Below are positions 5,699-35,800 of a stretch of DNA of 64,000 bases, one piece after another (the stretch's first letter is position 1; the number at the start of each line of letters is the position of its first letter). The position numbers were made by a program, and so were the translations under genes. A model generated the notes under the pieces. The model made no database searches. It was not told the origin of the DNA and worked only from the letters and a program-made list of their open reading frames with translations. Source of the stretch: an uncultured bacterium (GTDB lineage: Bacteria; Planctomycetota; Phycisphaerae; SM23-33; FEN-1343); assembly GCA_965372365.1 (NCBI GenBank), contig CBDVCA010000002.1:936-64935 (forward strand). Direction: 5' to 3'.

Positions 5699-5761
5699 GA
5701 TCGCATCTCCCCGATTGTGGCCTTCCCCGTATTTCCTCGGCCGATCGGCATAATAGAGCAT

Positions 5762-11800: not shown

Positions 11801-14800
11801 GTAGCGACTCCAGATCCGATTGGCCGAGCTTAGCGAAGGTCCGCAGGAACAACGCGTCGGAGATCTCGCTCAATTCGATGTCGTACCCATCACCGAACTG
11901 GAGGTGTCCCAGGTTGAAGTACTCCCAGTCGATCGGGAAAATGTGGGCCGGCTTGGTCGGGTTGGGCTTGCCGCCGGAGCCGATTCGCTCCTCGACTTGG
12001 CCCAGCCAATACTGCAGGCGAGGCAGCATCGGGGATCCCTGGTACCCCAGATAGCGGTAGGCGACCTTGTAGAACTGCAGGTCCACTCTGTCGAGATTAT
12101 CGTTAATCGCCGCCACATAGCTATTCGCCTGGCTCAGATCGTATTCGACGGTCTCCAGCGGACGCTGCTGGTTCAGGCTGGCCAAGACCACGTTGAGAGC
12201 CGACTCGTTGTTGTAGATATCCTGCCAGACGATGTTCAGGTTTTCCCAGATCAGGTTCAGGTCCTGGGTCCAGACGATGGCGGTCTGAACGGTGGACAGG
12301 TCGCTCAGGATCGTCGACAGCATATCGAATTGGCCGAGCATGTTGACTTGGGACGTGATCGCCGGCGAGAGGGTCATCTGTTCCACATCGCCCATGTTCC
12401 GCAACTCTTCGTCGAGCACCGACGGGTCGGAGACGCCTCGCCACGTCTGGACGGTCTGGAGCGTTTGCTGGAGCGGGGAGATCTGTTGCCAGAGCCCCGA
12501 CAGTTGGGTTTGCAGGCTGTAGTAGTTCTCGTACCCGTCTACCGCGTTGATTGTCGACTGCATCGACGGGCTGAGCAGGTCGGCGTATTGCGACAGGCCG
12601 CGGACGCCGGAGTCGAGGGCGGAGAAGTCGGTCGTCCACTGCAGCCACTCGATCTCATAGGTCGCCATGCCGACTTGGCCTATGTCGTTGTTGACGATGT
12701 CGATGTCGGACTGAACCACGGTGTAGGTTCGCGTGGTGCTCAGGGCGCTGATGGCGTTCACCAGACTCTGGGTCAGCACGCTGTCGTACGTCGCCAGCGC
12801 CCGGACGCCCGGATCGAGGTCTTCGTACAGTTGCAGGCCCCACAGTATGTAGACGGCGTCGGCGGCGTTCTGCACCAACGTTGCCTGGTCATTGACGATC
12901 TGGATGTCGGTATCCACATTCGCCAACGACCGCACCTGCAGCGCCGCGATGACGTCGCTGACAGTGTCTCCCAGCAGGGCGGCGTGGTCGTCGCCCAGCG
13001 CCAGGAGCAGTTGGTCGATCACGGTGGGGTCGGTGACGCCCAGAAGGATGCTGATATCGTCGATCGCCGCTTCCATCGGGATGATCTGGGCGTCGAGGGC
13101 CGCGATCTGTCCGGGCAGGACGGTGATGAGATTCTGGACGATCGCCAGGTCGTCCTGCACGAAGGCCAGGTCGCCCTGGTTCTCGTAGATCTGCCATTGG
13201 AGTGACGACTCCTGGTTGGCCAGGTCGTACAACTCCATGGAGACGGTGTCGAACCCTGAATCGACGGTGGCCAGGAGGCGTCCGAGTTGATCGTCGCTGA
13301 GGCCCCCGAGATCCAAGGCGTTCAGCGCCCCCAGGTCGAGGGCGGCGGTCTCGGGGTTGATCCCCGTTGGCGGTACGTAGTTGGGGCGGCTGAGGATCTC
13401 GTCGTTGATGCCGGCTCTGACGGCGTCCAGCCCGCCCTGGAAGCTCTGGCTGTCGAGGATTGTCGTCTGGAGGTCGCCCAGTTGCAGCGTCAGGTCGGCG
13501 GTGTCGCCGCCGATCTGCCAGATCTGCGACTGTACGCCGCCCAGGAGGCCCTCGACGCTGCTCAGCAGCGACTGGGTCTGGTTACGCTGCTGGATGAGGG
13601 TCGCGTAGCCGGGCATCTGGTCGATCGTATCGGGCCAGGTGTCCTGCACGGCCAGCATGTCGCCGATATCGGCGAGCTGGAACTGAATCTGCTGGCGATG
13701 GATATCCAGCGGCACCCGGATCAACTGCTGAATCTGGCTGTCGAGAAGCTGGCCGAGGACGACGCCTTGGCCCGCTTCGGTGGTAACGCCCATCGCGGCC
13801 AGTCGCTGCCACGCGGCGACCGTGTCGATCTGATCCTGCAGATTCGCGGCCAGCGCGTCGAGCAACTGCTGCTGCTGGGAGAGCGTCTGGTTGACCACGC
13901 GGAAGCCGGGGAAGTTATCGGCCTCGCCGAAGAGGTTCACGTTGCCGCCGCTGCGGAGAGTGACCTCGCCCAGCGAACTGAGCTTCCCGGCCAGCGTCAA
14001 ACTGCTGGCGGCGTTGACCGACAGACTGGCTGCGTCCAGGTCGACCGGCCGGCCGAGCGAACTGATCGTGCCGAGTGTCTGGAGGTCCAATTCGCCGCCG
14101 GCCCTCACGTGTCCGGTAATCACCAGATCGGCGTCCGGGGTGAGTGTGATCAGTGAGACGCCGGCTCCGGCGACGAGCGAGTTGGCCGCACCGTTGGACT
14201 CGACGTACAAGCTTCCCAGTTGCGACTGGAGCGTCAGTTCGGCGCCCAGACCCGGCGCCAGCGCCCGTCCGACGATCAGCCCGTTCTGAGCGGCCACGAA
14301 GACCGAGCCGAGGTTCGCGTTGACCATCCCGACCCTGACGCCCGGGGACATTTCGCCCACGCCGTCGACGTCGAGAATCTCCACCAGACTGCCGTCGATG
14401 GAGTTGGCGATCGTCACCTCGTTGACGGCCGTCATGAGGCCGGTGATCGAACCTCTGGCCATCGCCATCAGCGTGCCGGCGACGATGCTCGGGGCGGGGC
14501 CTTCTCCGGCTTCGGTGGGGATGGAGAACTCGCTGATCGGCAGGGTGAGCCCGCCTCGAATCTCGCCGTCGGCGAACAGTTGGACGCGGCCGGCGGAACT
14601 GAACTCGCGCGAGAACGTGAACAGATCGCGTGCTTCGCGTTCGACGGTTTCGGGGTCTGCGCCTCCGAAGGAGCCCTCGTACGCCAGGCCCAACAGCCCC
14701 AGCACCTGCGAGTACATCGTGAAGGCGACGCCGGCGGTCATGTAGGCGCCGTTGGCGGTGAAATCGCTGATCGCGATGGCCCGCAAGTCGCCGGGTTCGT

Positions 14801-17800
14801 CTCGCACGTCGTTCTCGAGTTCGACGAAGGTGATGGGCAGGCCGAACTCGTCCAGGATGGGCTCGCCCGCCGAATCCAGCAGCGTCGAGATGAACTCGGC
14901 GGGGATGCCGGCCGGATCGATCTGGCGCAGGAGGCCGTTGAGCATTTCAAGTCGAATCGCCTCGGCTTCGGCGTCGTCGGCGGCGTACACGCCGCCGGTG
15001 ATCGAGCCGACGGTGATCGTCCCGCCGCTGCCGCCGGTGGTCTGGAGGCGAATGACGTTCGCATGAGGCGCGGCGCCCGACGTATTCCAGTCGGTCAGCA
15101 GTGTGACGTTCTGAGCGTCGATGTCGCCTGCGTTGACGATGGTGATATCGCCGTCGAGGATCTGCACGTTCGACAACACCAGGGCGCCGACCGAACTGGT
15201 CACGGTCAGGTCGCCTTCGGTCCCCACGTCGATGTTCAACGTGTTGGCTTCGGTGGTCAGCGTGGTCGGCCCGAAGGTGCGAACGGTCAATTCGTCGGCG
15301 ATGACGGCGCCGTCGGGATGGGTCATCTGGCCGTAGACGGTGAGGAACACGTCGGCGCCGCCGGCGGCCTCGATATCGTGAACTTCGAGCGTGACGCCGG
15401 CGAGGCCGATGGCTTCGGCGATCAGCGTGATGTCGTTATCGTCGGAGCCGCCCAGCGAGCGGATCTCGGTGGCGATGACGCCGCCGCCGATCGCCGAAAT
15501 GGTGATCGGCCCATCGGCGGTCTGAACCTGCGTAAGCGTCAGCCCGGCGGTATCGGGGCCGTCGCCGCCGGCGAGACCGACGATGTCGCTGTCCTTCAGG
15601 ATAATGGCGCCCGGGCCGGTGACGACGGCGCTGACCTCGGCGACGTGGAGGTTCTCCAGCGTGATGCTCCCGCCGGCGATCACGCCCAAGGTGACGGCGA
15701 CGAGGCGTCCGCCGGTGCCGGGGGCGTCGTCTTCGGTCGGCGCCATCTCGGCCGCGGCCTGGATTACTTCGCCGGCCGGGGCCGACAAGGTAATCGTGGC
15801 GGCCTGCAGTTCGGCGTCGATCAGCGAGATGTCCCCGGCGATGCTTCCGGCGGTCAGTGAGATTGTGCTACCGGCGCCCGACGCCAGCAGGAATCCGCCG
15901 ATGGTCGGTCGCAGATCGTCGTCGCCAAACATCGTCTCGGGCGTCGCGGCCGGATCGTGTATGTACACGCCGCCGGCGCCGTCGGAACCGGCCTCGACGG
16001 AAACGCCCTCCAACGCCTCGATGGCGGTGGTGATGATGACGTTGTCGCCGGCGGTGACGGCCACGTTGTCTCGGGCGAAGATGGCCCCGTTGATGACGAT
16101 GGCTCCGTCGGCGTCGATGGAGATGTCCTGGACGGGGTCGCCGTCTTCGGCGGGCGCCTCGGCTCCGAGGGTCCGCAGTTCGGCGGTTTCGCCGACGGTG
16201 ACGGCGCCGGCCGCGGCGTCGATATCGATCGCTTCGTCGGCATGGAGGTGGATCATGTCGTAGACCTTCGGGTCGACGGGCATCGGCTCGCCGACGACGA
16301 TCGATCCGGCGGCCGAGTTCACCGTAATGGCCCCGCCGGGGGCCGAAGCGTCGATGCCGGCCCGAACGAGGATGTCCGTCCCGGCGTTGATGTCGATGTC
16401 GCCGGAGGCCGACAGCGTGTCATGATCGAAGATCGACAGTTCGGTCAGTCCGTCGGCGGCCACGGCGCTGCTGGCGTAGTCCAGTCGCTTCTCGGTGGTC
16501 GCGACGTATCGCCAGTTGGTGATCTGCTCCATCTTGATGACCGGTACGATGCTCTCGATGGTTTCGTAGAGCGGACGCTTGTCGACGATGTCGTGGGCCT
16601 GGGTGAACGCCCGGTAGGTGATGTTCGTCCGCACGTCTTCGATGTCCCGCCAGTCGGTGGTCATCTTGTAGATATAGTCGTGCTGGGTCTCGCCGGTATC
16701 GTAGGCCGGAAGACTCCAATCGGGCTCGCGCTCGTAGACGGCGTGAAGCTCCTCCACGCCGTTGAGATCGTTCCACAGCCCCGAGGTCCACATCTGCAGG
16801 TGGTCTTCGTCGTTGTAGGGGCCTGCGTTGTTGGGCTCGTTCGGGTGGAAATTACTGTAGCCTGTCCAATTGGCGATCCAGCCGTTGGCGACCCGATCCA
16901 TCGACCAGGAGTCGTGGCTGAGGCCGTTGATGTTGTACCCGCCCAGCCAGACCGGCGAATCGATCATGTCGCGGACCAGGTCGTTCTCGGCCTGATCGTT
17001 GATCACCACCAGATGCCAGGGCCAGGAGAAGAGGGCGTTGGCGTCGTCCCAGTCGTACATGTAGTACGACAGGTAGTAATCCCTGCCCTCGAATCGGCGG
17101 ACGTTGGCCACGTCGTCCTCGTGCCTCGCCGAGTCGTTGAGGAGTTGGAGGTTGATGTTGGCCTGCTTGACGGCCACGCCGGCCTCGGCGTCGCCGGGGT
17201 TGATCTGGGCGTACACCCGTCGTCCGAACATGTCTACGTCGTACTCCCAGTTGCCGCCGGTGAACCCCGAGACGTTCCCGTACTCGTCGACGGTTCCGGC
17301 GTCGCCGAGGTTCCAGTCCTCCGGTAGCCAGTCGACTTTCACCGAACTGTCGTAGGTCGTCGCCGGCAGATAACCCAGGCCGTCCATCAGGAGCGTCTGG
17401 ATGATCAGGTTGGTCTCCTCGGAGGCCGCCTCGGTGGAGAAATTCGCGGCGAGCAGTTGGAGCAAGCCCGTGTAGACGCCGGCCACATTTGGCATCGACA
17501 GTTCGTTCGCCGACCGCCCGTCATAGATGCTCCACTGCTCGTAGGCGGTCGGGTCGTCGTCGGTCCAGACGTTGTGCGGGGTGTCCCTGTAGGTTACGAC
17601 CCACCGGCCCGGTTCGTTGTCGTAGTCTTCCAGCACCCACAGGTCACCCTCGACGGGGTTGCTGGGGGCGCCCTCGGTCAGCGAGGACCACTCCTGGATG
17701 TATTCCAGTTGTGCGACTTCGCGAACCTGGCCGACCAACTCGTACTCGTTGATGGTGTTGCCCACGAACTGCAGCTTCTTGGCGTCGGATTCGACGCTGT

Positions 17801-20800
17801 CGGCGCCCAGGGCGGTCACCTCGTACTCGGTCCACCATTGCTCCGGCGCCCGGACGTAGATGTCGGTTCCGTCGTCGAGCGTGTAGGGGTACACGTTCCA
17901 CTGCTGGGTGCTGAGGTCGACTTCCCACAGTTGGGCGGTGGGGATGCCCTGGTAGTTGCGGTTGATCCGCCCGAGGGCGACTTCGGTCCCATAGACCTTC
18001 TCCCATCCGTAGTTGCCGAGGATGGTGTCTTCGCGTTCGAAGAAGCTGGCGATGTAGATGTACGTGCCCGTGGTCTTGGCGGGGTTGCTGTACTCCTCGC
18101 GGTAGTCGCGCCCGGCGATGAAGAAGGTATCCGACCATTCGAGCAGGACGCTCTCGTAGTCTGTGGGGTCGACGCCTTCGAGCAGTTCCTCAACCCTATC
18201 CGACGGCGGCAGCCAGTGGCGGTAGGCGGCCTCGGCGACCGAGTCGTGTTCGATGGGATCATAGTGCTCGTCCCGGTCGAACGGCGTGAACTCCGGGAAC
18301 CAGAAGTCGAAGTACTTCTTGGTGACCGTGTAGCTGTCGGTGTAGATCCTCCAGTTCGGCCCCGCCAGCATCAGCGTCTCCGACGGCGTCGCCTGGAACC
18401 TGCCCTCGACGATCACGCCCGGTACGAACGTTTTGGATCCGACGCCGTCGTCGACCAGCACGCCGGACAGACCCAACGCCGACTGGCCGGCGAAGGCGAA
18501 TTCGCCGGCGGCTTCGGCCATGGCTTCGGCGATCCCCTCAGCGTTCTCCTCGTCATCGTCGGTGGCGAACACCAGTGAAACATTGGTGACCACCGTGACG
18601 CTGTCGTCCTGGGAAAGGTCGAAGATGGACCTGTCGTTGAGCTGCTGGTACACGCCGAGGTCGTCGGCAAGCCTGTGCTGGGTCAACGGATCGTAGGTGT
18701 AGATCGTCTTCTCGAATTCCTGGATGAACTGCACGTCGAAGAGCTTGCGGTAGTTCTTGCCGCCGCCGGCCAGGATGGCGGTGGCCTTCTCGCCGGCGGT
18801 CAACTCGTCCCAGGGCTTGTAGGGCTGTTGGACGTAGGAGCCCTCGATGAGGGCGTGGACGTCGTTGGCCATCATGTCCAGCACATCGCCGTAGGAAGCG
18901 GAGTCCTGGCTTGCGAACAGGTCGATGATCAGCTTTCCGTCGCCGCCTTCGGTGAGCGCCATCGCGCCGCCGTCCTGGAAGATGCCGCCCATTTGCGGAT
19001 CGCGATCATTGCGGAACGAACTGATCGCCTCGTTGACGGTCACGCCTTGGGCGAACGTCGTTCCCGGGTCGATGACCGGACCCTGGTAGTCGGTGACCGC
19101 CCGAATCAGTTCGAACATGTCCGGGTCGATCGGCTCGAATGCCGGTTCGCCGCCAACATCCAGCAGCAGGAACAGGCCGCCGTCGTCGTCGGGCGCCTTG
19201 CCGGGCCAATCGAGATCGTCGATGACGTAGTCGACGCCCGGTACGAAGTACTCGCGGAACTTGTCGGCGGCCGGCACGTTCTCCGACCAGTACCCGTCCT
19301 GGAACAGCCGCACTTCGGCGCTGCCGAACTCGCTGCCGACCTTCACGCTGATCATGTCGGTCTGCTCGGTCGTGATCGTCGGGATGTAGTGCACCACCGG
19401 ACGCTCGATGAAGCTGTCGGCCACACGATTGGAGCCGGTGACCACGTCGATGTAGACCGGCTCGTAGGTTATGTACGCCGGGGCGAACTGCAGGTCGTCG
19501 TTCATCGCGTCGTCGTAGGCCAGCAGCGTCACCTGGCCGGGGGCGTCGACGGTGATGTTTCCCGTCGCGGCCGATTGGAACCCGGCCGCCAATTTGCCTT
19601 CGGCGGCGATGACCACCGAACCGGCCGAATCGACCAGACCGGCGTCGACGTCGATATCCGCACCCGAAAGCACCTCGCCGCGAATCACCACGTGCCGGTT
19701 CGCCTGAAGCGACGCCAACGCCGGGTCGGCTCCGCCGTTGCGTGTTTCGCCTTCGACGGCCACGGTGCCGTAAACGTTAATGTCGTCGCCGATCAGCGAC
19801 ACCTGGCCTTGGGCGGCCACTAGCGCCCGGAAGTAGTACACCTGGCTGCGAGCTACGTAGACGGTTCCGCCGACGTCGGTGGCCGTCAGCGTCGTATGGG
19901 AGTCGGGAGCCCGGGCGATGGTTACACTCTCATCCAACGCCCAGACGTTGGCGCCTGTCACGTTGATTATGTCCTGGGCGTTCACCAGGGCGTCGGTCGT
20001 GATCTCCACGTCCGATAGCGACGTCAGATCGACTTGCCGTACGTCGACGGTCGACTCGCTCGCGCCGCCGTCGAGCTTCACCAGGCCGACCATGCCGTGA
20101 ATCCAGATGTCCTGGTCGCCGGTGACAACGATATGCCCGGCCGGGCCGGTGGTGTTCAGCACGCCGCCGCTGCGGCGGGCGGGCAGGTCGACCATGACCG
20201 GACCGGTCGTCGTCATCAGTTCGGCGATGCTGAGCTGGATCTCGCCGCCTTCGAGGCGATCGGCGCCCGGGACGCGGGCTTCCAGAACGAGGGGATCCTG
20301 CACCACGCGATTCCCGCCGGCGACCGGGGCGTCCAGGTGCGTCAGCGGTACGCCGTCGGCGCCGATAAGCTCGCCGCGGTCGTTGATGAGGTCGCCGGTT
20401 TGATTGATCAGGGCGCCCTGGTCGCTGATGAGATTGCCGTACACATCGGCGCGATAGTCGATTCCCAGGAGGTTCAGGACGGTCCAGTACTCCCCGGCGC
20501 CGTCGTTGAGCAGCGTGCCGGAGCCATTGAGCAGCAGCCCGTTGACGGCGATTAAGTAGCCCTTGGAACTGATCAGATCCAGATTCGTGTCGATCAGGTT
20601 GCCGGCGGCGTCCACGCGGTCGCCGTAGACATTGATCGCGACCCCAAATTCGTCGATGAAGTTGCCGTTGGGGTCGATGAGGTAACCGAACTCATTCATC
20701 AGATCCCCGTCGGCGTTCAGTCGCCGGCCGTCCACGTTGACGACGCGGCCTGCGGCGTCGAGATACTGGCCGATCTCGTCAACCAGGAACCACGCGCCGC

Positions 20801-23800
20801 TGACATCCTCGACGAGTTCATGGCCTTCCTTGTCGACGGTGACCGGGTCGCCGAGATCGTTGTACGTGATGTAGACGATGCCGGCGCCGAGGACTTCGAC
20901 GCCGCCTTCGGTGGCGCGGATCGGGACGCCGCCGTCGTCGACCACGACCTCGTCGAGGCCGTTGACTTCCAGCACGAAGCCGTAGTCGTCCACGAAGTCG
21001 CCGTTCATATCGATGGCGAAGTCGACCACGGCGCCGAGCGTGGTGGTGGCCGCGGCGGTTTGGGTTTCGTATAGCAGCTTGTCGACCCACACGCTGATGG
21101 CCTGTCCGCCGGCGAGCGTGGCGCCGGTGAGCGTCAGGTCGCGCCCGGCTTCAACGTGTCCGCTGACCCACAGCAGGCCCTCGCCGGAGACGATCGTTAC
21201 GTCGGAGTTGGGATCCATCGCCTGGATCGCCCCGAAGATGTTCACGCCGTCGCCGGCGTTGACGTTGATCGAACTGGGGGTGGGCAGCCCCTGGCTATCG
21301 GTGACGATGGCGCTGAGTTCGTTGACGGTGAACAGTTGCGCGCCGCCGCCGAGCACCTGGACGTCGACCAGGCCGGTCGCCTGGACGTACGATCCTCTGG
21401 TGATCGGGTCGCCTTCGTTGGCGGCCAGGCCGGCGGCCACGTCCAGATCGGTGGCGATATCCGGCCCGCCGAAGGTGACGGTGTCGGTTGCGACGATGCT
21501 GATCCCGGCGTTGTCGCCGCTCCAGGTCAGCGTGGACGGATCGCCGCCGTTGGCCAGGCGGCCGCGTTCGGCGCCGGCGTGGAGGGAGCCGATCATATCG
21601 AAGGTGGCGCCGCTGATCGTGATTCGGCTGTCGGCGTCTCGGGTACGGACCTCGCTGGCCGCGGCCACATGGACGCCTCCGGCGCCGGCGAGCAGCAGAA
21701 CGTACTGCGAACCGACCACGGCGGCGCCAAGTGGGAAGGTGTCGCCTTCGGTGAGGTCGCCGAAGACTTCCCCTTCGGCGAGTTCGCCGGTGGCCCCGCC
21801 GATGGTGATGCCCGGCGAGACGACCCGCACCTGTTCGCCCGGTGCGGTCAGGAAGTCGGTGGCTTCGGAGACGAACTCGAAGGTTTCCACGCCGCCGGCT
21901 TCGACCGAGCCGGTGATGGCCAAGGCGGTCGGCGAGTTAATCAGCACCGAGCCGAGGGCGTCGACGTCGCCGGTGAGGACGACCTCGGTGGCCGCGTCGA
22001 TCACGACTTCGAAGTTTTCCGGCAGCGGAGCGTTCGGGTCGGCCGGGGCCGGGGCGGCGAGTCCGGCGTTCTTGATCACGCCGTTGACGGTGATAACGTC
22101 GCCTTCCAGGACGATCCGGCCGTTGGTCTCCAGCCAGCCGCTCTCGGCGGTGACCAGTATGTCGTCGGTCTGGCTGACCACGTGGATATCGCCGTAGGTT
22201 CGGGGTTCTTCCTGCTGCAGCGAGCCGATGGGTCCGTCGACCACGACGCGTTTGTAGCCGTCCAGTTCGATGGTCTGAGGCGGGGCGGCCCCGCCGGTGG
22301 TCCCCAGCCAGGCGGTCGCCTCGAGGGTGATGCTGTCGGCGCCGGCCGCGGCGGCCAGGACATGACCGGCGGAGATGAGGATATCGCGTTCAGCGTGGAT
22401 CATGCCGCTGATGGTCAGCGTATCGTCGGCGGTGAGGATCACGTCGCCTTCGGTCCCGCCGGCGGTGAGATCGCCCTTGAGATGGCCGTTGGCGCCGAGG
22501 TCGAGGATGATGGGGCCGTCGATGGTCTCGAGGAAGCCGGACCAGTCGAGTTCGAGGCCTTCGGGGCCGCCGCTCATCTGAATCATCGCATCGCTGCGGA
22601 CCGAGCCGGCGATGTAGAGTTTGGCGTCGGGGTCGGTCGAGGTGAAGCTGACGACCGAGCCGTTGGCTTCGGCGATGATATTGAACGGTCGCGACGATAC
22701 GCGCGTCTGGCCGTCGGCCACCCGGTCGAGGCCGAGGTGCTGTTCGTTGGCGCCGGTGAGGGTTTGCAGCGCCGGGGCCGGGTTGTGGGGGTTGCTGAAC
22801 GTCGGATAGATACGGAACTCGTACTGGCTGGCGAACAGCAGCTTGCCATGCTTGAACTTCACGCGGACGATCGGGTCGGCGGCGCCGCCTTCGGTAATCG
22901 GGTCGTCGGCGAAGTCGTCCGGGTCGTATGGATTGCCGTCGAGATCGAAGAAGCTGCCGCCCCGGATGGCGCCGGGGATGGCTCCGTTGAGGGCGTTCTG
23001 CACGTCTTGCACCAGGGCGGTAATCTGGTCGCCGGTGGGATTGTCGGAGGTCGAGATGGCCGGGATAGTCACCTCGCCGACGATCTTCTTCACGCCGAGG
23101 TTCACCCAGACGACGACGGTGACGTCTTCGGGGATCTCGCCCTTGTTGCTGGCCCGGTTGGCCTCGATCACCTCGTTGGGCATGTCGGTCATGCCCAGCA
23201 GATGCTCGTTTTGGGAGGAGTATTCCAGTTGGAATTGCTCGAAACTGACCAACGAGAATTTCCCGCCGCGGTACTCGGCCCAGACGTCCTGACTGCCGAT
23301 CGTCAGCAGCAGGGCGTCGTTGATGTCCTCGAGGAGATCGTCGATGCTGGTGTTGTCGTCGGTGTCGGAGGCGTAGATGGTGACGGTGTACTCGTCCACC
23401 GGCGCGGCGGCGGCCAAGTTCGCCGGCAGCATTCGCAGGTCGAGCGTGACGTCCTCGCCGAAGGTCCGCCTGGGCGGCAGAACCTCGTCGGCGGCCAACT
23501 GCTGGCCGATTGGCGGCAGGACGGCGATGGCGATGTTGCCTGGCGTGACGTTGGTGAGGCCGAGTTCGGCGGCGGCGATTGAGCTATTGCCGTCGATGAA
23601 GAAGGGCGCGTCGCCGGTTAGAACCAGGTCGTACTGCTGTGTGGTCTCATTGAGTCGCAACTGGGCGACGATGTATTGCCCGGCGTACGTGCCGATCGGA
23701 TCGACGTGGCCGGCCTGATAGATCGGCGTAGCCGCCAGCGCCGTCTGAATATCCAGCAGCAGGTCGGTTGCGGAAGTGTTGTCGGCGGTGTCGGTTTGAC

Positions 23801-26800
23801 GCACGAGGACCTGTGCGGTCAGGAACACGCCTGGGCCGGTGTTGATGACCAGTAAGAGCGTGGCGTCGGCGGCGGTTACGCCGTCGCCGGGCAGGGCGGC
23901 GGGGGCGTCGATCTCGTAGTCCGGGACGGTCGCCGAAGAGTTGAGTACGCCTTGAGCGAAGCCCAACTGATCCAATTCGTCGGTAGGCCCGCTGGTGAGC
24001 GTGAAGTCGATGTCGCTGAGCAGGACGATCCGCCCGGTCGCATCGGCGGCGGAACCGACGCCGGAGCCGCCGGGGGTAGCTTCGAAACCGCCGACGGCGG
24101 TCGCGCGGATGTAATCGCCGAAGAACTCTCCCGGATGGCTCGGAATCGCCGTCGCCGCCAGCGCCACATTGATGTCGCGGACCAGGTCGGCGATGCTGGT
24201 GTTGGCCACCGTGTAGGGGGTCTCGCCGTTGGTGTCGACTGCGAGCACCGTTACCGAACCGACGCCGCCGTCGCCGCCGTCGAGCGACAGTTGCAGCGTG
24301 ATGTCTTCGCTGAGCACGCCGTCGATCATGCTGTCGACCGGCAGCACCCGGTACGTCTCCGGCGGACGAACCGCGGCCTCTTCGGGGGCGGCGATGATCG
24401 TAACGCCCAGCAGGTGGGCGTTGGTCGAGTCGTCGCCGATCGAGAAGGCGTGGGGGCTGGACAGCACGATTGCGCCGGCGTCGACGTAGGCGGTAATTTC
24501 GCGGAACCCGCCGCGGATCAACGCCGCCGTCACATCCTCAGCCAGGGCGGCAAGCGAGTCGGCCTCGGTGGCCCCGGTATTGTCGATCGTATCGGCCCGG
24601 AAAATCGTGATCGACCCTTCGACCACGGTGAAAACGTCGCGATCGATCTCCAGGGGCAGATCGGGCGAGAGGCGGATCGGGTCGTCGTTGGGATCGACCA
24701 GGGCTCGGACGATCGTGAGGGTGACGTTGTCGGGGAGGATGCCGGTGGTCCACAGATCCTCGTCGGGGGTGATGTCGAAGACGGCGTCGGGACGGACGGA
24801 GGCCGCGTCGGCCCCGTCGTAGACGCCGGTCAGACCCAGCAGGTCGGCCGCGGCGGACGTGGCGTAGACGTCGAAATCGACGGTCATGCTCGTGAAGGAG
24901 AGCGTCCCGCCCACGTCGGCGACCTGGATATCGAACCCGGCCGCGGCCAGGGCGGCCTCAACGTCCGCCGCTAGGTCGGCGACGGTGGTGTTGGCCGGAC
25001 CGCTTGTTCGGTCCGTGTCGGCGCGGGCGATGGTGACCGACGCTGTGGTGATAACGTCGTCGCTGTCGACCGCTTCGATGTCGAGCGTGACGTCCTGGGC
25101 GAGGACGCCGGTGGTCGGCGCGTCGCGTTCGCCGATCAGTTCGAATACCGAAGGCGCCCGGAGAGCGTTGACGCTTGCCCCGCCGTCGAGGGTCGTCAGG
25201 CCCAGCAGGTTCGCGTTGACCGAAACGGCGCCGTCGAGGGTGTAGTTCCATCCGCTGACGAATTGGATTCGATTGCCGTCCAAATGCGCCCGGATGCCGG
25301 GGAATCCGGCGAGGGTCAACGCGGCGTTCACATCGACGATAAGATCGGCCGGCGTTGTGTTGGTGGGGTCGACGGCGATCGTCACCGGGGCGGTTTCGAT
25401 CATGCCGTTGCGGTTGACCATGACGTCCAGCGTGACCGGATCGGTCAATACGGCGGCGGGGATATCGGCCTCGCCGGTGATGTAGGCGTCGTAGAAGATC
25501 TCCGTCGCCGGCAGTTCGTCGCCGCTGGTGAGGCCGACGAGTTCGAGATCCCCCGAGGCGACCTTGAGCTTGAATTCGTGCGCGCCGGTCAGCAGGATCT
25601 TGCCGTCCCGCAGCGATGCGGTGATGTAGTCGGCGAAGTCGCGGCCGCCTTCGTAGCGAGGAATGGCTGTCGCCGCCAGTTGGGCGTTGATGTCGTCAAC
25701 GAGATCGGCCAGACTCGTGTTCAGCGTCGTGTCGCCGACCGGTACGATGACCGCCCCGAGCAGTTCGTCGTCGATGTCGGTTTCTTCGATGCGGAGGATC
25801 AGCACCAGATCGCGAATCAACTGCCCCGTCGTCGGTACGGGCGCGTCGGGGGTAAGCACGGCCGGGTCGCGATGCTCGACGGTGTCCCAGTCGCCGCGAA
25901 GGCCCAGCAGGTTGACGTTCTCGGAGGTGTCGGCGATCTCGAAGTCGTACCCGAGCGTGCTGAACACGATCTTGCCGTCCACCTCGGCGGCCTCGATTGC
26001 GGCGAAGGCGCTTGTCGCGAGTTGGGCGTTGATGGTTGCGATGAGTTGGGCCTGGCTGGTGTGCAGGGCGGTCAACGCGGCCGGGATGATTACCGAGCCG
26101 GTGATCTCGCCGCCGAGGCCGTCGTCGATGCTGAGAACGAGCGTGACGTCTCGCACCAGTCGGCCGGTGGTCGGCAGGGCGACATCGCCGTGGATTTCGG
26201 CCTCGGGGTAGACGATCCGCGCCGTCAGCACGCTGGTGAGGCCCAGCAGGTCGAGGTTGACCGACGACATCAGCAGGTCGCCGGAGATCGGCAGGACGCT
26301 GAAGTCGTACGGCGCGTGGAGGATCAGCGATCGGCCGGTCCAGGTGGCGTCCATGTCGCTGAAGTACGTGCTGTCTTCCAACTCGTCGTCGAGCGTGACG
26401 ATGACCAGTGCGTCGTTGCCGTAGTCGCCGGCGTCGAGGGTTACGATCTCGGTGAAGTACCCCCCCGACCCGTCGCGCCGCTGTAGAAGGATGTCCACGT
26501 CGGCCGGCAGTACGCCGAGCAGCTTGAATTGGCCTTCGCCCACGAGGTAGGCTCGCGGGCCCTTGGCCCATTCGTTCGGTTCGATCTCGTGGAAGTGGGT
26601 CGGCGAGAGCACCTTGATGTCGTTGACGCCCTCGATTTCGATGTTGCTGAATTCGCCCCACGTTTGCACAAGGGCCGACCCGTAGATCAGCACGCTGGCG
26701 CCGGTGAAGTTGAACGGGTCGAGCGGATCGCCGACCAGAGGATCGGCGCCGCCTTCGATGTGAATCAGATCGCTGGCCTTGATCGTGGTGCCGATTCTCA

Positions 26801-29800
26801 CCTGGTGCTCGGCGATGATGATGATCTCGGTTCCGGTGGCGTCGAGGAACGGTTGGAGCTCCGAGCCGATGAACCCGCCGGTGGCGCCGTCGCGGACGGT
26901 GGTGATCTCGCCGCCGGCGATGAGGTGGCCTTCGATCTCGGCGTCGAATTTGGAGTCGATTTCGATAACGCTATCGTTCTCGTGCGTGGTGATCTCGCTG
27001 GAGCCCTGGATACGGACGCCGATCTCCCCGCCGGTATAGGGGTGTTCGGTGGTGTCCAAGTTCATGAGGGTGATCCGGTCGCTGGCGGCGATGTAGCCGC
27101 CGGTGGGGACCACGCTGCCGAACAGCGAACTGCCGGCGACGACTTCGTACCACGACGAATCGCGGCTCGACGCTACCGTCGCCGGGGAAGCGACGGTGGT
27201 GAACCCGAACAGATCGGCGTTGACCGAGCCGGCGTCGATTTCGAAGTCGTTGAGGCTGGTGAACTGCAGCCGTCCGCCGTCTTGGCCGGCGACGATGTTG
27301 TCGAGGTCGGCTGCGGCGAGGGCGTCGTTGAGGATGTCGACGAGTTGGGCGAGCGTCGTAATCCCGGCGGTGTCGGCCGGTGTGAGGGTGACCCCGGGGT
27401 CGTTGCCGGCGTCGCCGTCGTTAATGATCAGCGTGACCGACAGACCGGGGGTCAGCGACGCCGGGGCTTGGTCGGCGGTGACGGCCGCGTCGGCCCAGGC
27501 GAGGTTGGCTTGGTGGTCGCCGGCGAGCATGCCGAGCAGATCCATGCGGGTGCTGGTCGACTCGATCGTGAACGGTGCGCTGCTGGCGAATACGAGGCGG
27601 TTGTTGCGGATCTGGACCCGCAGGGCGTCGCCGAACTGGGCGGCCAGGGCGTCGGCGATCTGCGTACGCAACTCGTACAGGCGGGTGTTGCCCGCCGTGT
27701 CGGCGGCGTCGAGGGTCGTCGAGGCGGCCATGGGGGTTCCGCTCGGGTCGAGGGTGATGTCGAGTACGACGGTGTCGGCCAAGACAACTTCGGTCGCCTG
27801 GTTGACGGCCCAGCCGCCGATATAGACCTGGCCGGACGATTCGATGGACACTTCGCCGCCGACGGAGGCGTCCCAGTCGATCGTTTCCTTGATGAGGTTG
27901 CCTTCGCCGTCCCACAGTTGGCTCTTGGTGGCGCCGGCGTAGAGGTAGCCCATCATCTCGACGCCGCTTTCGCCGAAGATGCGAATCACGCCGGGGCTGC
28001 CGTCGGAGGTCCGCCCGGCGGCGGTCATGCCGCCGGCGGTGGTGACGATCACGCTGACGCGGCGTTTCTCGGCAAGGGGCAGACCGTCGTTGTCGGGGTC
28101 GAGGCTGACGTCGTCGTCGCTGGCCGCCCCACCGATGATGGTGACCGAGTCGCTGGCGAGGACGCCGCTATCGATGTAGACCTGCTCGCCGGCGGTGATG
28201 ATGACTTCGGAATCGGTACCGGACCACGTTACGCCCATTGGGCCGATGGCTCCGCCGGCCAGCACCGTGCCGAGGATGTCGACGTCGTTGGCGCCGTCGA
28301 TATGGATATTGCTGCCGTTCTGGAACGACGTGATCACGGCGGTGGCGTCGACGAATACGCTGGAGAGAATGCCCGTCTCGACGTCGACGGTCTCGCCGCG
28401 GCCGTAGATGTCGATGCCGTCTTCGACTTCGACGAAAGAGGTAGCGAACTTCACCCGCTGCCCGCTGTCGATCAGCAGGCCCGAGTTCGCCCCTCGCACG
28501 AAGATGCTGCCCTCGATAATGATGTCATCAGGGCCTTCCAGTCGCAGCAGGCTGTTGTCGGCGTAGGAGGTCAACTGGCCGGTGAGGTGGATGCTCGCGT
28601 CGACGGCGTCCCGCTCGTTGTAGTCATGGTCGATCGCGCCGGTCAGTTCCATGATGTTGGTGGAGGTAATGGCGCCGAAGATTCGCAACTCGTGCGGCGT
28701 GTTGATGACGACGTCGGCCCGGACGCCGTCGATCGGTCGCTTGACCCCGCCGACCCAGTGGGCGCCGGCGAGAATCTCGCCGCTGATGTAGACGGCTTGG
28801 GGGGCTTCGATGTGGATCAGGCTGCCGTCGCCGTCAGCGGAGATGACGCCGGCGATCTGGACCAGTTCGAAGAACGTCCCCGGCAGAATCTCGATGGTTC
28901 CGCCGGCGCCGTGGACCCAGTTCTGGCCTTCGAGCACGACGGAATTCTTCGTGATGATCTCGATGGTTCCGCCGGAGGCGAACGTTTCCATCGTGCCGGT
29001 GACGCCCTGGATGAAGTTGTTCAGCCACTTGCTGCTGTTGACCGGCGCCACGTCGGACATCATCGCCGAGGTGTACTCCTCGCCGTCACCCTGGATGTTC
29101 ACGCGGATATCGCCGTCGGTGCGGACCCAGCCGTCGACGATCATTCGGTCGCGGATCCCGTCGAAGTCCAGCAGATCGCCCCGGATACCGGAATCGGTCC
29201 GGCCGATGGGGTTGTTGATGTTCTTGTCCTTGATCTGCAGCCGATCGGTGTTCATCTGCATCACGACGGGCGGCTCGGCGCCGGGGGCGATCGCCTCGAC
29301 TTCGCCTTCGATGAAGATCTTGGCCGCGTTGAGGACGACGTCGTCGCGGAAGGCCGAGTCGCGGTCGCGGTCGGTCTGGTCGAACTTGACGATCGCGGCG
29401 TCCATCGCATCGCCGAATCGCATCACCAGAGTCGGGTTCGCGTCGCCCTGATCGTCGCCGATGGTGATCAGCGTGAAGCCGTTGGCGATGCCCGACAGGT
29501 CTCGCGTGGAGATCAACGCCGTGCCTTGGAAGATGCTGCCGTCGTTGTCGTAGGTCTTGTTCCCTTCGGGGCCGGAGAAATTTCCGCCGACGTGCCAGGG
29601 GAAGTTGGTGAACTCGGGGTAGTCGTCGGCGATGGCCGTCCAGTCGTTGCCCAACTCATGCTCGGCGGCCGTGCCCATGACGAACGTGGTGGCGTGGGGC
29701 GCGCGTAGCACCAGTTCGCCGGTTCCGATGACGCCGCCGACGGGTCGGTCGGTGGTGAGGTCGCGTCCGGCCGCGGCCGGGACGAAATCGAAGTCGTCGG

Positions 29801-32800
29801 CCAGCAGGATGATGTCCCTGTCGGCGGTGGGCGTGATGATGCTGCCGGTGTGCAAGGTCAGTCTGGCGTCGACGCCGAGCAGTTCCACTTCGATCGCGCC
29901 GTGGGCGCTGTAGAGCCCCACGGGGTTCTGGGCGGGCGTGTCGGAGAGGTCGACGCCGTAGACGACCAGGCTGTCGGTCTCGCGGACGAGGATTTCGCTG
30001 CCGTCTGCGAGGCCCTCGGTGCGGGTCAGCACCGTCAACCCGGCGACGGTGGTGATGATGGGGTTGGAGCCGGCGTACGAGGTGTTGTAGATGTTGTCGC
30101 CGGCCAGGATCAGGTGCGATCCGGCGCCGACGAATTCCATGTCGCCGGACAGGGTGATCACGCCCTCGGCGACCAGTCGCATCGATCCGCCGCCGGCGCC
30201 GTCGGTGGTTTCGCCGGTCGAGGAGGTAATGTCCACGTTCAGGTCGATGTCGGCGGGCGTTGCGGTATTGGCGGCGTAGATGTCCAGGCGGCCGTCGTTG
30301 ATCGCGTTGATCCGCTGGTTGACGATGATGTCGCTGAGGCGGATGAGCCAATCGAGGTCATGGGCGTCGATGGTGTGGTCGATGCGGCCTTCGCCGGCGC
30401 TGGAGCCGATGGTGTCGGAGGTGATATCGAAATCGCCCCGGGCCAACACGCTGCCGTCGAGCACGACATCTTCTTCGACGGTGAAGACGAAGTCGTCGCC
30501 TTCCAGATCGGTCGAAATCGTCAGGTTGCGAGCGTCGATGATCAAGTCGGTGTCGCCCAGCACGGCTCCGCCGGCGGTGGAGATGATCTCCAGGTCTCGC
30601 ATGTGGAAGGTCGTCTCGCCGGTATCGTCGATTTCCGAATCGACGACCGGCAGCGAGATCTGCTCGACGCCGTCGGTGTACCGGATGATCTCGCGGCCGT
30701 TGACGAGTTCGTGATCGTTGATGGTGAGTTGGTCGAACGGGCCGTCGACGGCGTTCATGCCGGTGAGGTTGTTCAGGATGATCCGGTCGAAGTCGGCGTC
30801 GTTGTCGATGATGCTGATGACGCCGTCGGCCTTGCTGGAGTTCTGCAGCCCCATCTCGAACGTGTACGTCGCCGACCCGCCGGTATCTTCGAGGGTCAGC
30901 GTTCCTTCGGGCAGATCGCGGAGGCGAAGCTCGTCGTCGCCGGTTCCCAGGATGATCGTGGAGATCAGGCCGCGGCCGAGGCGGAGTTCGGTGTCGCCGG
31001 TGGCGATCTTGACGCCGGTCTTGCTGATGTCGACGACCAAGTCCTCGGTCGTGCCGCTCATATCGATGATGCTGGCGCCGGCGGAGTCGGAGTAGCGATC
31101 CTGGCCGTAGCCGGCGATGAAGACGTACGTATCGATTCCGTCGCCGCCGCTGAGGGTGTCGTCGCCGGAGCCGCCGTCGATGAGGTCGGCGCTGTCGCCG
31201 CCGGTGATGCGGTCATTGCCGGCGCCGCCGATAAGCGTGTTGGCGCCGGAGCCGCCTTGGAGCGTGTCGTCGTCGTCGCCGCCGTCGAGGCTGACGGTTC
31301 CGGTTGAGGCGCTGGCGTACAGCCGATCCTCCCCGGCTCCGCCGGTCATGGCGGCGTCGCCGGTTCCGGCGGTGAGGGTGTCCTTTCCAGCGCCGCCGTC
31401 GAATTCGACAGCCACGCCGTCGAGGCCGGAAGCGTCGAAGCTATCGTCGCCGGATCCGCCGTCAGCGATAACCTTGGTGAAATCGCCGCTGGCGGTGAGA
31501 TCATCGTCGTAATCCCAACTCCAGTCGCCGTAGGAGACCTTGATCGAATCGGCGTCGCCGGTGATGGTGAAGCTTTCGCCGCCGTCGTCGGTGTCGAGGT
31601 ACTCGCGCTGGCCGGCCCGACTGCCGGAGTGGATCACCAGCGTATCGCCTTCGACGTGGGCCAGCACCGGCTGGACCTTCGGCGCGTTGTACTCCCACTC
31701 GGCGATGGTGACGTCGACGATGGTCCAATCGACCACGCGGGACATGATCTTGCCCACGAACGGGATGGAGATGCCCACGTCGACGAAGACATAGGCCTCG
31801 ATGTAGGCGCGACCGTGAATATTGACCAGGTTGGCGAATCCGCCGGCTGCGTCGTTGCCGGTGTAGTTCCACATGGTGTCGAATTCGGAGAAGTGGATCT
31901 TGCCGTCGTCGTTGACGTCTTGCAGGTCGATGCCGGTGGTGAAGCCGATCACGCCGCCGAGGCCCGCTTCGACCACCAGCGCCCAGATGGAGGCTTCGAG
32001 GCCGATTTCGGCGCCGAAGGAGAACTCGTCTTTCTCTGCGGGGTTGTCGCCGAGGCTGTAGTCGGCGATGAAGAATCCGTCCAGCGCCAGCCAGGGGTTG
32101 CCCGTTTCGATGGCCCGGCGGATGCCGTAGGTGTCGTACCCGAACCCGAGGTCGGCTTCGAGGTTGAACCCGCCGACGGCGCTGATATTGATGAGCACCG
32201 GCCCGGCGGTGATCGTCGCGATGACCTGGCTGAACCGCATGTCGTAGGTCAGCAGGGGCATTTCGTAGGTGAACAGGGTGGCGTCGCCGCCGGTGAGCAG
32301 CTTCATCCAGTTGCCGATGTCGGTGAGGTGGTCGAGGATCTCGAATCCGCCTCGTGCGGTGGACGAGCCGCCGCCGGAGACGCCGGAACCGCTGGAGGCG
32401 CCGGTGGAGTCTTCGGAGACGCCTGCGAGGAAGTCATCGAGGAACCCCGGCGCGTCGCCGTCGCCCCGGTTGGCCGAGGGCGAGTCGGTTCCCAGCCCGA
32501 GGATGTCGCCGAGCATGATTTCGCCGTCGGCGCTGAGCATCTGGTCGACCTGCTGGACGAGATCGAGCATGCTTTGTGCGGCGTAGAAGAACTGCGGGGG
32601 AATCTGCGAGTACCCGGCCAGTTCGGCGACGAAGTTGATCAGCCCGAGCAGGTTCGGGTCGTCCAGCATGATGTCGAGGCCCGGGATCGGCTCCAGCAGC
32701 ACGTCGATGATTGGCTCGATGGGCTCGAGGACGCCGCGGATGTTTTCGGCGATCGGCTTGAGTACGTCGCTGACGAAGGAGCCGACGTCGAGGCGCAGGT

Positions 32801-35800
32801 CATAGAGGCCGATTTCCGGTTCGGAGGCGCCGTTGGCCAGGTCCCAGCTCCAATCGAGGACGAAGTTGGCCTTGAGTTCGGGCAGGCCGTCGAAGCCGTC
32901 CAGCGACAGTGCGAACTCGAGGTTCATGGCCGCGTCGACGCCGAAGTTGACGCCGAACAGTTCGTCGATCGGCGACGAGAGCAGGTGGTTGAGCGTCATC
33001 CGGCTGGTCGCGGGGTCGCCCTTGATGTCGATATCGAGGAAGCCGAACAGTCCGCTGGGCTGGAAGCCCGTGACGCCGGCCTCGCGGTCGACGTCGGTCG
33101 CTTCGAGCTTGAGGAACAGCAGTTTGCCTTCGGCGTAGAAGGGCGTGACCTGGACGTTGTCCAGGGGCTTGCCGTCGAGGAACACGCCGATGCCGATTTC
33201 GAGTTCGGGGTCGGGGTCGAGTTCGGGGTGCTCTGCGTCTGCTTTGTCGTTGGTGCTCAGGTAGAAGCCGTTCAGGAGGCTCAGGCCCATGCCGAAGTCG
33301 AAGCTCCAGTCCATTTGCACGGCGAACCCGCCGTCGACGTTGAGCGCGAATCCCGGCACGTCGATGTCCAGCGGGATATCGACGCCGGTGCCGAACGCCA
33401 CGCCCCCCAGAGGCAGGTTGAATTGGATCGCGTCGGTGTCTCTGACGATCTGGGAGCCGCCGGGGGGGACGACGCTTTCGCCCGGCAGGTAGACGCCGTC
33501 GGAGTCGTAGACGAAGCCGTTCTCGGGCACCGGTTCGCCGACGACCCAGTCCTTGATTGCCACGCCGGCGGCGTCGTACCAGCCGACCAGAATGTCGCTG
33601 ACCTCGACGGTTCCGTTGCCGTCGCCGTCGAGGATGATGTTCAGCCCGGTGGGTCCGAACACGTCCCACATGCTGTCGCGGAGGAACTCGATGGCCTTGC
33701 CCGGCCCGTTGAGTTTGGCTCGCAGGTCGGCGAGGAGCCCGAGGCGCATGTCGCTGATGAAGGCCGCGGCGCTGCCGAGTTTGTCGCCGATCATCGGGAT
33801 ATCCTGGGCGAAACTGGAGCCGAGGACGTCTTCGACGCCGCCGAGGGCCATGTCGATGCCGTCGAGGATATAGGTGGGATCGTTGAGGATGCCCAGCAGG
33901 CCGAAATCGCCGCCGAGGGAGCCGACGATGTTGGGGAACGCGAACGTCACCGGCGAGGCGCCGACCCAGTCGTCGGAGTTGGTGATGTACTCGAACATCT
34001 TCAGCAGCGCCTGGTCGCCGTAGGCGGCCGAGTTGGTCTGGATTTCCAACGTACCGATGGTGATGCCGAAGATCTCGATCGGCAGATTCACGTCGAAGTT
34101 GCCCTTCAGGTCGAAGGTGAGGCTGTCCTTGATGAGTTCTTCGCCGCCGAAGTGGAACTTCTCGTCGTTGGGTACGCTTGCACTGGGCTGCTGGTCGACC
34201 GCCAGGGTGAAGGTGATCGCGTCGTCGGTCAGCGGGTTCTGGTCGCCGTCGAGCAGGACGCTTCCGCCCTTGATGCCGATATCGAACGGCTGGATGGACA
34301 GTTCGAGGTCTTCGGCGGCGATGGACGCCCCCAGTTGCAGGCGCGTGCCGATGTCGTCGGTTAGCAGCAAGGGCGTTCCGCCGTCGTCGTAGTCCCACAG
34401 GAAGAAGTCCAGACCGCTGAGGCCTTCGGTGTCGACGTCGCTGAAGTCGATGCCCAGTTCAATGGTGACGTTGGCGAAGGCTTTGAGCGTGAGCATGCCG
34501 CCGGCGTCGACGAAATCACTGAGCCCCTGCAGCGCCGCGGCGGCCGAGTTTCCGGTCATTTCCTTGAACGTCGCCAAGTCCAGCGAGAAGACGAACTGCT
34601 CTTCGAACAGCATCTCCCACTCGATGTGCATGTTGAGCGTTTCGCCGTCGAGGTAGATCGAGAAGATCTGATCGCGCCACGGCGTCGGGTCGGGGTAGTC
34701 GTCCTCGTGGTAGGTTCTGCTGAACCCGCCGACGCCGTCGGTCCAGTTGTCGTCGTCGATGCCGAGAGCGTTCTCGATAAGCAGTTCAACTTCCTGAATC
34801 ACGCCGGCGGGATTCTCGGCGGCCTCTTCGACCTTTTCGGCGAGGTCGTCGACGAAGTCCATCACGTCGGCCAGCGAGCGGTTCACCAGCGGAATGGTGG
34901 TGTTGTAGAAGGGTGTATCGCCCAAGGCGCTGTCGAGGAACCCCAGGCCGGCGCGGATGGCTTCGATGATGCTGGCGAAGTCCATGTCGCCGAAGTTGAA
35001 CACGTCGTCGAAGGTCGGGATGATGACCACGACGTGGCCGAGATCCTTGATCGCGTCGAGTTCGGCGGCGGTCTTGTCGCCCTGGGTGAACACGTCGATC
35101 TCGGACCAGTCGATGAGGTTCCCGATGGTGATCGACAGTTCCTTGCTGGCCAGGGACGACGCATCGACGCCGGGGATCGGGGTCTCGAGCGCCAGTTGTT
35201 TCAGCGCCGCGGAGGCGTACCCTTCGAAGTTGAAGTTGAATGCGTCGATCAGGGCGCCGCCGACCAGTTCGGTGAAGGAGAACTCGCGGTCGTCGGTGGT
35301 TTCGAGGTCACCGTCGGCGTCCAGCAGGATCTCGGCCTTGGCGTACAGGTGCACGCCGCTGCCGGCGCCGGGGCCGCCGGCGGTGAGGCCGATGAATCCG
35401 AGCCGGGCGTAGAATTCGAGGTCTTCGACATCGAGCCACGCTTCGCCCTTGATGTGGACGTTGTCGATGAGCATCGTGAGGCCCTCGGTCCCGGTGGGGC
35501 CGTCGAGGTCCAGCACCCAGTCGAAGCCGGCCTCGACTTGCGCCAGTACGTCCACCGTCGCCGACGTGCCGAGTTCGGCGATGTCGCCGAGGTCGATCCC
35601 CAAGTCCAGCGGGATGTCCTGGAGCCCGAAGCGGTCGTAGACGAACGTCGAGATGCTCGACTGGTCGATCAGACCGAGGTCGACCAGCCCGTACAGGTCG
35701 AAACCTTCCACGCCCAGGGCGCCGATCGCGACGTTCCCCAGTTGCAGGTCGCCTTGGGCCAGCATCAGATGGGTGATCAGATCGGCCACGGCCACGCTGA

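Follow-up and report, generated by a model that had tools for sequence, protein, structure and literature searches.

Which domain is repeated in tandem inside the giant open reading frame (ORF) on contig CBDVCA010000002.1 of an uncultured bacterium, and what might such an array do? The stretch of contig that we analysed (64,000 nt, hereafter the window) belongs to a Phycisphaerae-like planctomycete. A sequence-only reading of it had placed ~12 tandem copies of a module that it could not assign to any family at 22900-27800, in what it took for a giant surface protein with a rod-like stalk of Ig-like or novel beta-sandwich domains. Our analysis makes it probable, with some reserve, that the array consists of twelve domains remotely homologous to the IN domain of FliD and flagellin, which serve outside any flagellum as exposed spacer or decoration modules of a giant surface protein.

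The number and limits of the copies were determined with a hidden Markov model (HMM) that was seeded with eight obvious units and iterated on the giant protein itself. Exactly 12 units were found by this self-derived HMM, at aa 6437-8125 (window 22752-27818), which bears out the earlier count and interval. The units are 98-147 aa long (median ~122), sister units share pairwise identities of ~25-44 %, and units 1-2 are parted from units 3-12 by a 188-aa module (aa 6645-6832), which gives the array a 2 + 10 layout. All three motif blocks described by the sequence-only reading are visible in the alignment consensus, P..GVL..DVTL / VTI.A.DT..NTS.ADL..DIN.ALAA / I.A....G.L.F.S...F.I...S.N..LLGLT. 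A non-circular profile, made of 85 copies of the domain from other proteins (no copy reaches 35 % identity with a window unit), recovered 11 of the 12 units with independent E-values (i-E) of 1e-9 to 1e-19, and gave zero matches in 20 shuffled versions of the giant protein; unit 3 was detected solely by a window-derived or mixed profile. Broader profiles revealed no additional copies elsewhere in the giant protein.

No curated library recognises these units. NCBIfam gave no significant match for any of the 12 units, PDB sequences gave none for the window-only profile, and Pfam, scanned with the 12 units and 97 diverse copies of the family, returned only sub-threshold scatter; a confident match to an existing Pfam repeat family was looked for and not found. 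The commonest sub-threshold match was Flagellin_IN (PF07196), to one of the 12 units (E = 0.064) and to five of the 97 copies (best E = 0.027), and the Pfam gathering threshold for PF07196 was reached by none of the 12 units or 97 copies. However, the PF07196 model misses E. coli FliD itself at E<=0.1, and is therefore insensitive. Hence the statement that the domain is unassignable holds for Pfam, NCBIfam and PDB sequence searches, but not for the comparisons of fold and of profiles given below, by which the units are assignable to the FliD/flagellin IN outer domain.

Unit 4 was modelled by AlphaFold2, with the 12 units as the alignment (12 rows), at a predicted local distance difference test score (pLDDT) of 92.3 and a predicted template modelling score (pTM) of 0.84. 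The model contains strands at residues 10-18, 29-36 and 42-49, a short turn and a 14-residue helix (60-73), followed by strands 79-84, 87-93 and 97-99 and a terminal helical turn. The predicted fold of the unit is thus a strand-rich alpha/beta domain with the helix packed on the strands, and not a classical all-beta sandwich of Ig, cadherin or Big type, although the nearest flagellin outer domains are termed ‘Ig-like’ in one paper (PMC11532411). In a Foldseek search of PDB with the single-unit model, the top seven matches were P. aeruginosa FliC (4nx9; E = 0.02, probability 0.98), Salmonella and E. coli FliD D2-D3, Vibrio FlaB and the Campylobacter cap complex, and with the two-unit model FliD or FliC made up 13 of the top 15.

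Profile comparisons lead to the same domain. When a 97-copy profile was searched against PDB sequences, the top match was P. aeruginosa FliD 5fhy (E = 0.004), over the strand-loop-helix-strand-strand core. For hhalign, a FliD reference set was assembled from genuine fragments gathered with an E. coli FliD query, many of them pre-annotated with PF07196, and their IN regions, 21-37 in number, were aligned. The family matched these genuine FliD IN regions with a probability of 94.7-95.3 % (P = 2-6e-8) over 79-81 columns, while 60 column-shuffled FliD profiles stayed at <=1.7 % (score <=15.4, compared with 43.8), a reversed profile at 1.2 %, and three other FliD regions at 0.1-1.9 %. With the window-only profile the match was weaker (score 25.1, P = 6e-4), but still above every control.

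The conserved positions also correspond. Among 597 aligned copies the family has the signature N(86 %)-x-[ST]-[LIV]-x-D-L(92 %)-x-x-D(76 %)-[ILV](96 %)-[NQ](84 %)-x-A(77 %)-[LI], whose counterpart in FliD is N-S-S-L-x-G-I-R-D-A-I-N-x-A. The Ile-Asn pair defines and names the Pfam IN motif (PMC9751261); the exact pair is found in units 4, 5, 9 and 11, and a hydrophobic residue followed by N or Q in eight of the 12 units. We also considered the N-x-S/T before the helix as a glycosylation sequon and set this aside: FliD has the same N-x-S/T-L pattern, so a loop and helix-cap feature is the simpler reading. A fold search of the viral library BFVD matched the unit to decoration domains of tail-sheath, baseplate-J-like and structural proteins (TMq 0.54-0.58, probability 1.0), in line with a published similarity between the T4 gp11 finger domain and a flagellin beta-domain (PMC9751261). 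Judged from these comparisons, the units are best described as an uncurated family, a remote homologue of the IN-motif outer domain, filed apart from PF07196.

Taken one by one, the Foldseek PDB matches are weak (E-values >=0.01, TM-scores 0.44-0.50), and this weighs against homology. The units could accordingly be an orphan repeat domain, which has come by convergence to share with FliD and flagellin a simple strand-helix-strand-strand motif that has Ala- and Asp-rich helices. Such E-values and TM-scores of ~0.45-0.5 would be compatible with convergence, as would the failure of all curated HMM libraries and the hhalign probability of just 29 % for the window-only profile. However, four partly independent methods point to one flagellar domain, the hhalign probability of 95 % extends over ~80 columns with clean shuffled, reversed and other-region controls, and the conserved positions coincide (N-x-S/T, then L, then D-I-N-x-A); we consider convergence unlikely. 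Other sub-threshold Pfam matches, to RodZ_C (4 of 97), DotD (2), YscD BON-like (2) and LytR_C (1), would suit a small alpha/beta domain of the ring-building, BON or secretin-N type, used for oligomerisation or peptidoglycan contact. But Flagellin_IN is matched more often and no less well, neither Foldseek PDB search has any of these folds near its top, and the PDB sequence search is without them, which leaves a ring-building domain very improbable. An Ig, Big, cadherin or SbsA-like stalk domain, for which the sequence-only reading had advised a check, was rejected: the model has the 14-residue helix, Ig chains appear in Foldseek at a probability of <=0.2, and the Big, cadherin and Ig models of Pfam gave no consistent match, only isolated single-member sub-threshold ones (Big_3_3, Ig_VWA7 and SpaA_3) among the 97 copies.

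How are neighbouring units arranged? The two-unit model (units 4 and 5) shows the same fold twice, with a pTM of 0.53 and a linker pLDDT of ~52. The low pTM and low-confidence linker favour independently folding beads over a rigid, interlocked rod, and the model points to an arrangement as beads on a string. The suggestion of a giant surface protein is retained, in that the protein is giant and probably extracellular, but its rod-like stalk is disfavoured.

To what extent does the family occur in other proteins? An exhaustive HMMER search of 1.84 billion representative sequences returned 526 carriers at E<=1e-3, 171 at E<=1e-10 and 15 at E<=1e-30. Most carriers are giant proteins in which no domains are recognisable; many span 5,000-7,800 aa, and one protein may hold as many as 15 copies. 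By contrast, a word-indexed search found just three metagenomic orthologue fragments with the window profile and gave zero matches with a diverse profile; since the exhaustive search gave 526 carriers, the empty search probably reflects a limit of the word index. Carriers are named in their sources ‘hypothetical’, ‘Ca2+-binding RTX toxin-like’, ‘calcium-binding’ or ‘LEPR-XLL domain-containing’ protein (the last being the NCBI name of carrier P0019), and their taxon labels include Verrucomicrobiota, metagenome-assembled genomes (MAGs) of Deltaproteobacteria, Zixibacteria and the isolate Maridesulfovibrio frigidus (WP_031484953.1, 7,259 aa); a single-protein query found a relative in Phycisphaerae bacterium SM23_30 with 52 % identity. 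In the relatives scanned no Pfam family lies over the IN-like domain, ten single-copy carriers that were scanned have no Pfam domain at all, and the 150 best carriers show no similarity to E. coli FliD or FliC other than in the IN region. By sequence searches, then, the domain family appears widespread yet uncurated.

The top-scoring carrier, P0004 (NCBI MEM2990727.1), is a nine-copy orthologue fragment on a 3.6-kb MAG contig with the label ‘Halobacteria archaeon’, a label that probably stems from faulty binning and does not mean that the domain occurs in an archaeon. A metagenomic orthologue of units 4-6 (JGI 3300033141, Ga0366833_1057943; L003) is spread over three adjacent same-strand genes of 1627, 199 and 444 aa, apparently a giant gene with a frameshift or an assembly error, and illustrates how such proteins are fragmented in databases.

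Comparison with these carriers also dates the array. For every unit, the score with a positional counterpart from another protein exceeds the scores with all its sister units, and the counterparts follow in colinear order; units 6, 7, 10 and 11, for instance, correspond to residues 94-202, 206-317, 702-827 and 828-948 of P0004. The array is therefore old, with each unit conserved individually. Moreover, Tandem Repeats Finder showed no tandem repeat at the DNA level, which rules out recent expansion. A recent or homogenised expansion was rejected on these two grounds together.

The 188-aa module that interrupts the array has no Pfam, NCBIfam or PDB match, and the flank and insert modules together gave zero matches against PDB sequences. 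Orthologues carry the 188-aa module in the corresponding position. At least 13 other giant proteins have an insert-like module followed, after ~25 aa, by a single IN-like domain; insert-like module and single IN-like domain thus form a recurring cassette, of which the insert and unit 3 are the example in the window. By eye, the flanking repetitive segments and the 188-aa module resemble a beta-solenoid. The module copies in both flanks, its conservation in orthologues and the occurrence of the cassette elsewhere make the array look like an excursion from a repetitive, beta-solenoid-like shaft.

In the explanation that we favour, each unit (~110-145 aa) would fold on its own, with three strands at its N-terminus, a loop that closes with N-x-S/T, a 14-residue helix in which the D-(I/L/V)-(N/Q)-x-A-L signature lies, another three strands and, at the end, an LLGLT turn. 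Strung as beads between the repetitive segments that look like beta-solenoid, the units would be solvent-exposed spacer or decoration modules, as on flagella and phage tails, without catalytic function. The array would add length (roughly 40-50 nm if extended) and lend a strongly negative, possibly adhesive surface to the giant cell-surface or secreted protein. Related flagellar and phage-tail domains are exposed and non-catalytic, with roles in adhesion or surface properties (PMC11532411, PMC9751261), and by analogy with these decorations the array is most likely an exposed, acidic, flexible spacer or adhesive segment.

The same domain family could also provide specific ligand-binding modules (for lectin/polysaccharide-type binding, minerals or Ca2+), each unit with its own specificity. 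The units are conserved position by position across species and are not homogenised, they are strongly negative (-5 to -19 per unit), alginate binding and a part in adhesion are reported for the outer domains of flagellin and FliD (PMC9751261, PMC11532411), and it has been proposed that a flagellar surface with negative charge adheres to minerals with positive charge (PMC11532411). But no conserved pocket or metal-binding motif was identified, and conservation falls on residues of the hydrophobic core and helix cap, by which unit-specific ligand binding becomes distinctly unlikely.

Compared with Flagellin_IN (PF07196; E. coli FliD ~120-210, P. aeruginosa FliD 5fhy), the window units have the same core order of strand, N-x-S/T loop, helix with a central Ile-Asn-type pair and two to three strands, but add N-terminal strands and the C-terminal LLGLT turn. 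The IN motif may repeat one to five times in flagellar proteins (PMC9751261), whereas the window array has 12 tandem copies and relatives up to 15, in a host protein without D0/D1 helical domains. Flagellin outer domains D2/D3, which are surface-exposed, non-essential and fast-evolving decorations, are the top Foldseek match (P. aeruginosa FliC 4nx9 and Vibrio FlaB 9p7r; probability 0.98-0.99), though at a TM-score of ~0.44, and are inserted in a polymerising helical core while the units here stand in series in a giant protein that is monomeric. The decoration domains of phage tail sheaths and baseplates are similar in fold, by structural comparison, and in their exposed position, but are single insertions and not arrays. 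Giant RTX/LEPR-XLL-type surface proteins of Planctomycetes-Verrucomicrobia-Chlamydiae (PVC) bacteria and tandem-domain adhesins (Big, cadherin-like and BapA/SiiE-type stalks) are likewise long, acidic and Cys-poor, and likewise combine RTX, FG-GAP and PKD parts with a long run of small tandem domains; the repeated domain here, however, is not of Ig, Big or cadherin fold, and the gene has no adjoining type I secretion system (T1SS) genes.

Descriptions of the Flagellin_IN motif are confined to flagellins and hook-associated proteins, with function unknown (PMC9751261), and in the literature searched we found no description of IN-like domains in giant non-flagellar proteins. Flagellin outer domains have been proposed to be co-opted from other proteins, with cellular homologues for just a few clusters (PMC11532411); a tandem IN-like family in giant non-flagellar proteins would be one more candidate cellular homologue. 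Tentatively, and against our own expectation, the IN domain might even be a general extracellular decoration module, whose largest and most diverse pool lies among the non-flagellar giant surface proteins of Planctomycetota, Verrucomicrobiota, Desulfobacterota and related groups, and this pool, together with phage tails, might be source or recipient of flagellar outer domains. If the IN domain were general rather than flagellum-specific, the role of its motif could be studied outside the flagellum. The array reveals no new mechanism. Its value lies in a predicted fold for ~1,700 residues here and for hundreds of otherwise unannotated giant proteins, and in a family alignment ready as seed for a new Pfam or InterPro entry.

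What kind of protein carries the array? PVC phyla frequently have proteins of >=10,000 aa (bioRxiv 10.1101/2023.11.21.568195). The protein of 13,765 aa has a single Cys (aa 38) and 10.8 % Asp compared with 1.0 % Lys; its net charge is -1647, that of the array alone -180. Pfam recognises in it only RTX, FG-GAP and, weakly, PKD parts (Table 1), leaving >95 % without annotation and nothing over the 12-unit array. From the RTX, FG-GAP and PKD matches, the single Cys, the charge and the names of its relatives, the protein is probably extracellular, and apparently cell-surface or secreted. Pfam found zero matches to Flagellin_N/C or FliD_N/C across all 13,765 aa; lacking these D0/D1 helical domains, the giant protein does not belong to the flagellar or type III-exported axial proteins.

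Table 1. Position of the array, its units and other features in the window (residues refer to the giant protein)
Feature	Window position	Strand	Residues (aa)	Remark
Giant ORF holding the array	5829..47126	minus		13,765 aa, uninterrupted
Whole array	22752..27818	minus	6437-8125	12 IN-like domains and interrupting module
Unit 1	27525..27818	minus	6437-6534	without N-terminal strand
Unit 2	27195..27524	minus	6535-6644	
Interrupting module	26631..27194	minus	6645-6832	conserved, 188 aa, related to segments in both flanks
Unit 3	26232..26630	minus	6833-6965	most divergent; pairs with preceding module as two-module cassette
Unit 4	25896..26231	minus	6966-7077	AlphaFold-modelled, pLDDT 92.3
Unit 5	25524..25895	minus	7078-7201	second half of two-unit model
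Unit 6	25191..25523	minus	7202-7312	
Unit 7	24825..25190	minus	7313-7434	
Unit 8	24396..24821	minus	7436-7577	loop insertion after strand 2
Unit 9	23952..24392	minus	7579-7725	insertion after helix
Unit 10	23550..23951	minus	7726-7859	
Unit 11	23184..23549	minus	7860-7981	
Unit 12	22752..23183	minus	7982-8125	long insertion after helix, degenerate C-terminal LLGLT
Two insert-like module copies	27807..28451	minus	6226-6346 and 6370-6440	just upstream (N-terminal) of array
Insert-like module copy	21360..21686	minus	8481-8589	downstream (C-terminal) of array
RTX calcium-binding nonapeptide repeats (HemolysinCabind)	31128..31232	minus	~5299-5333	Pfam E = 8e-10
FG-GAP repeats	6990..7397	minus	~13244-13379	Pfam; top-scoring of C-terminal FG-GAP region
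PKD-like segment	6618..6746	minus	~13461-13503	near C-terminus, under Pfam cut-off
LEPRLMLS, LEPR-XLL-type motif	46962..46985	minus	48-55	N-terminal, read by eye
GT87-family (GT-C type) glycosyltransferase gene	4241-5761	minus		68 bp downstream of giant ORF, same strand
ORF of 171 aa	47509-48024	minus		upstream of giant gene, zero Pfam matches
ORF of 1,275 aa	49485-53312	minus		upstream of giant gene, zero Pfam matches

At the N-terminus of the giant protein a Sec signal is not obvious, and an NCBIfam scan of aa 1-2000, which includes the LEPRLMLS motif, gave no match at E<=0.01. The C-terminal ~120 aa (window ~5900-6250, minus strand) contain two D-x-D-x-D-G...DLDDF(V/I)LK.NFG repeats, by eye a dockerin-like calcium-binding pair, followed by a basic Arg-rich tail; Pfam reported no dockerin in the giant protein at E<=0.01.

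The neighbours of the giant ORF in the window encode a GT87 protein, an SNF2 helicase, an MFS transporter, NuoF-like oxidoreductases and beta-propeller proteins, and no T1SS genes (ABC transporter, membrane fusion protein or TolC) are present in the 64 kb. Flagellin outer domains are often glycosylated, and the adjoining GT87 gene may hint at glycosylation of the giant protein.

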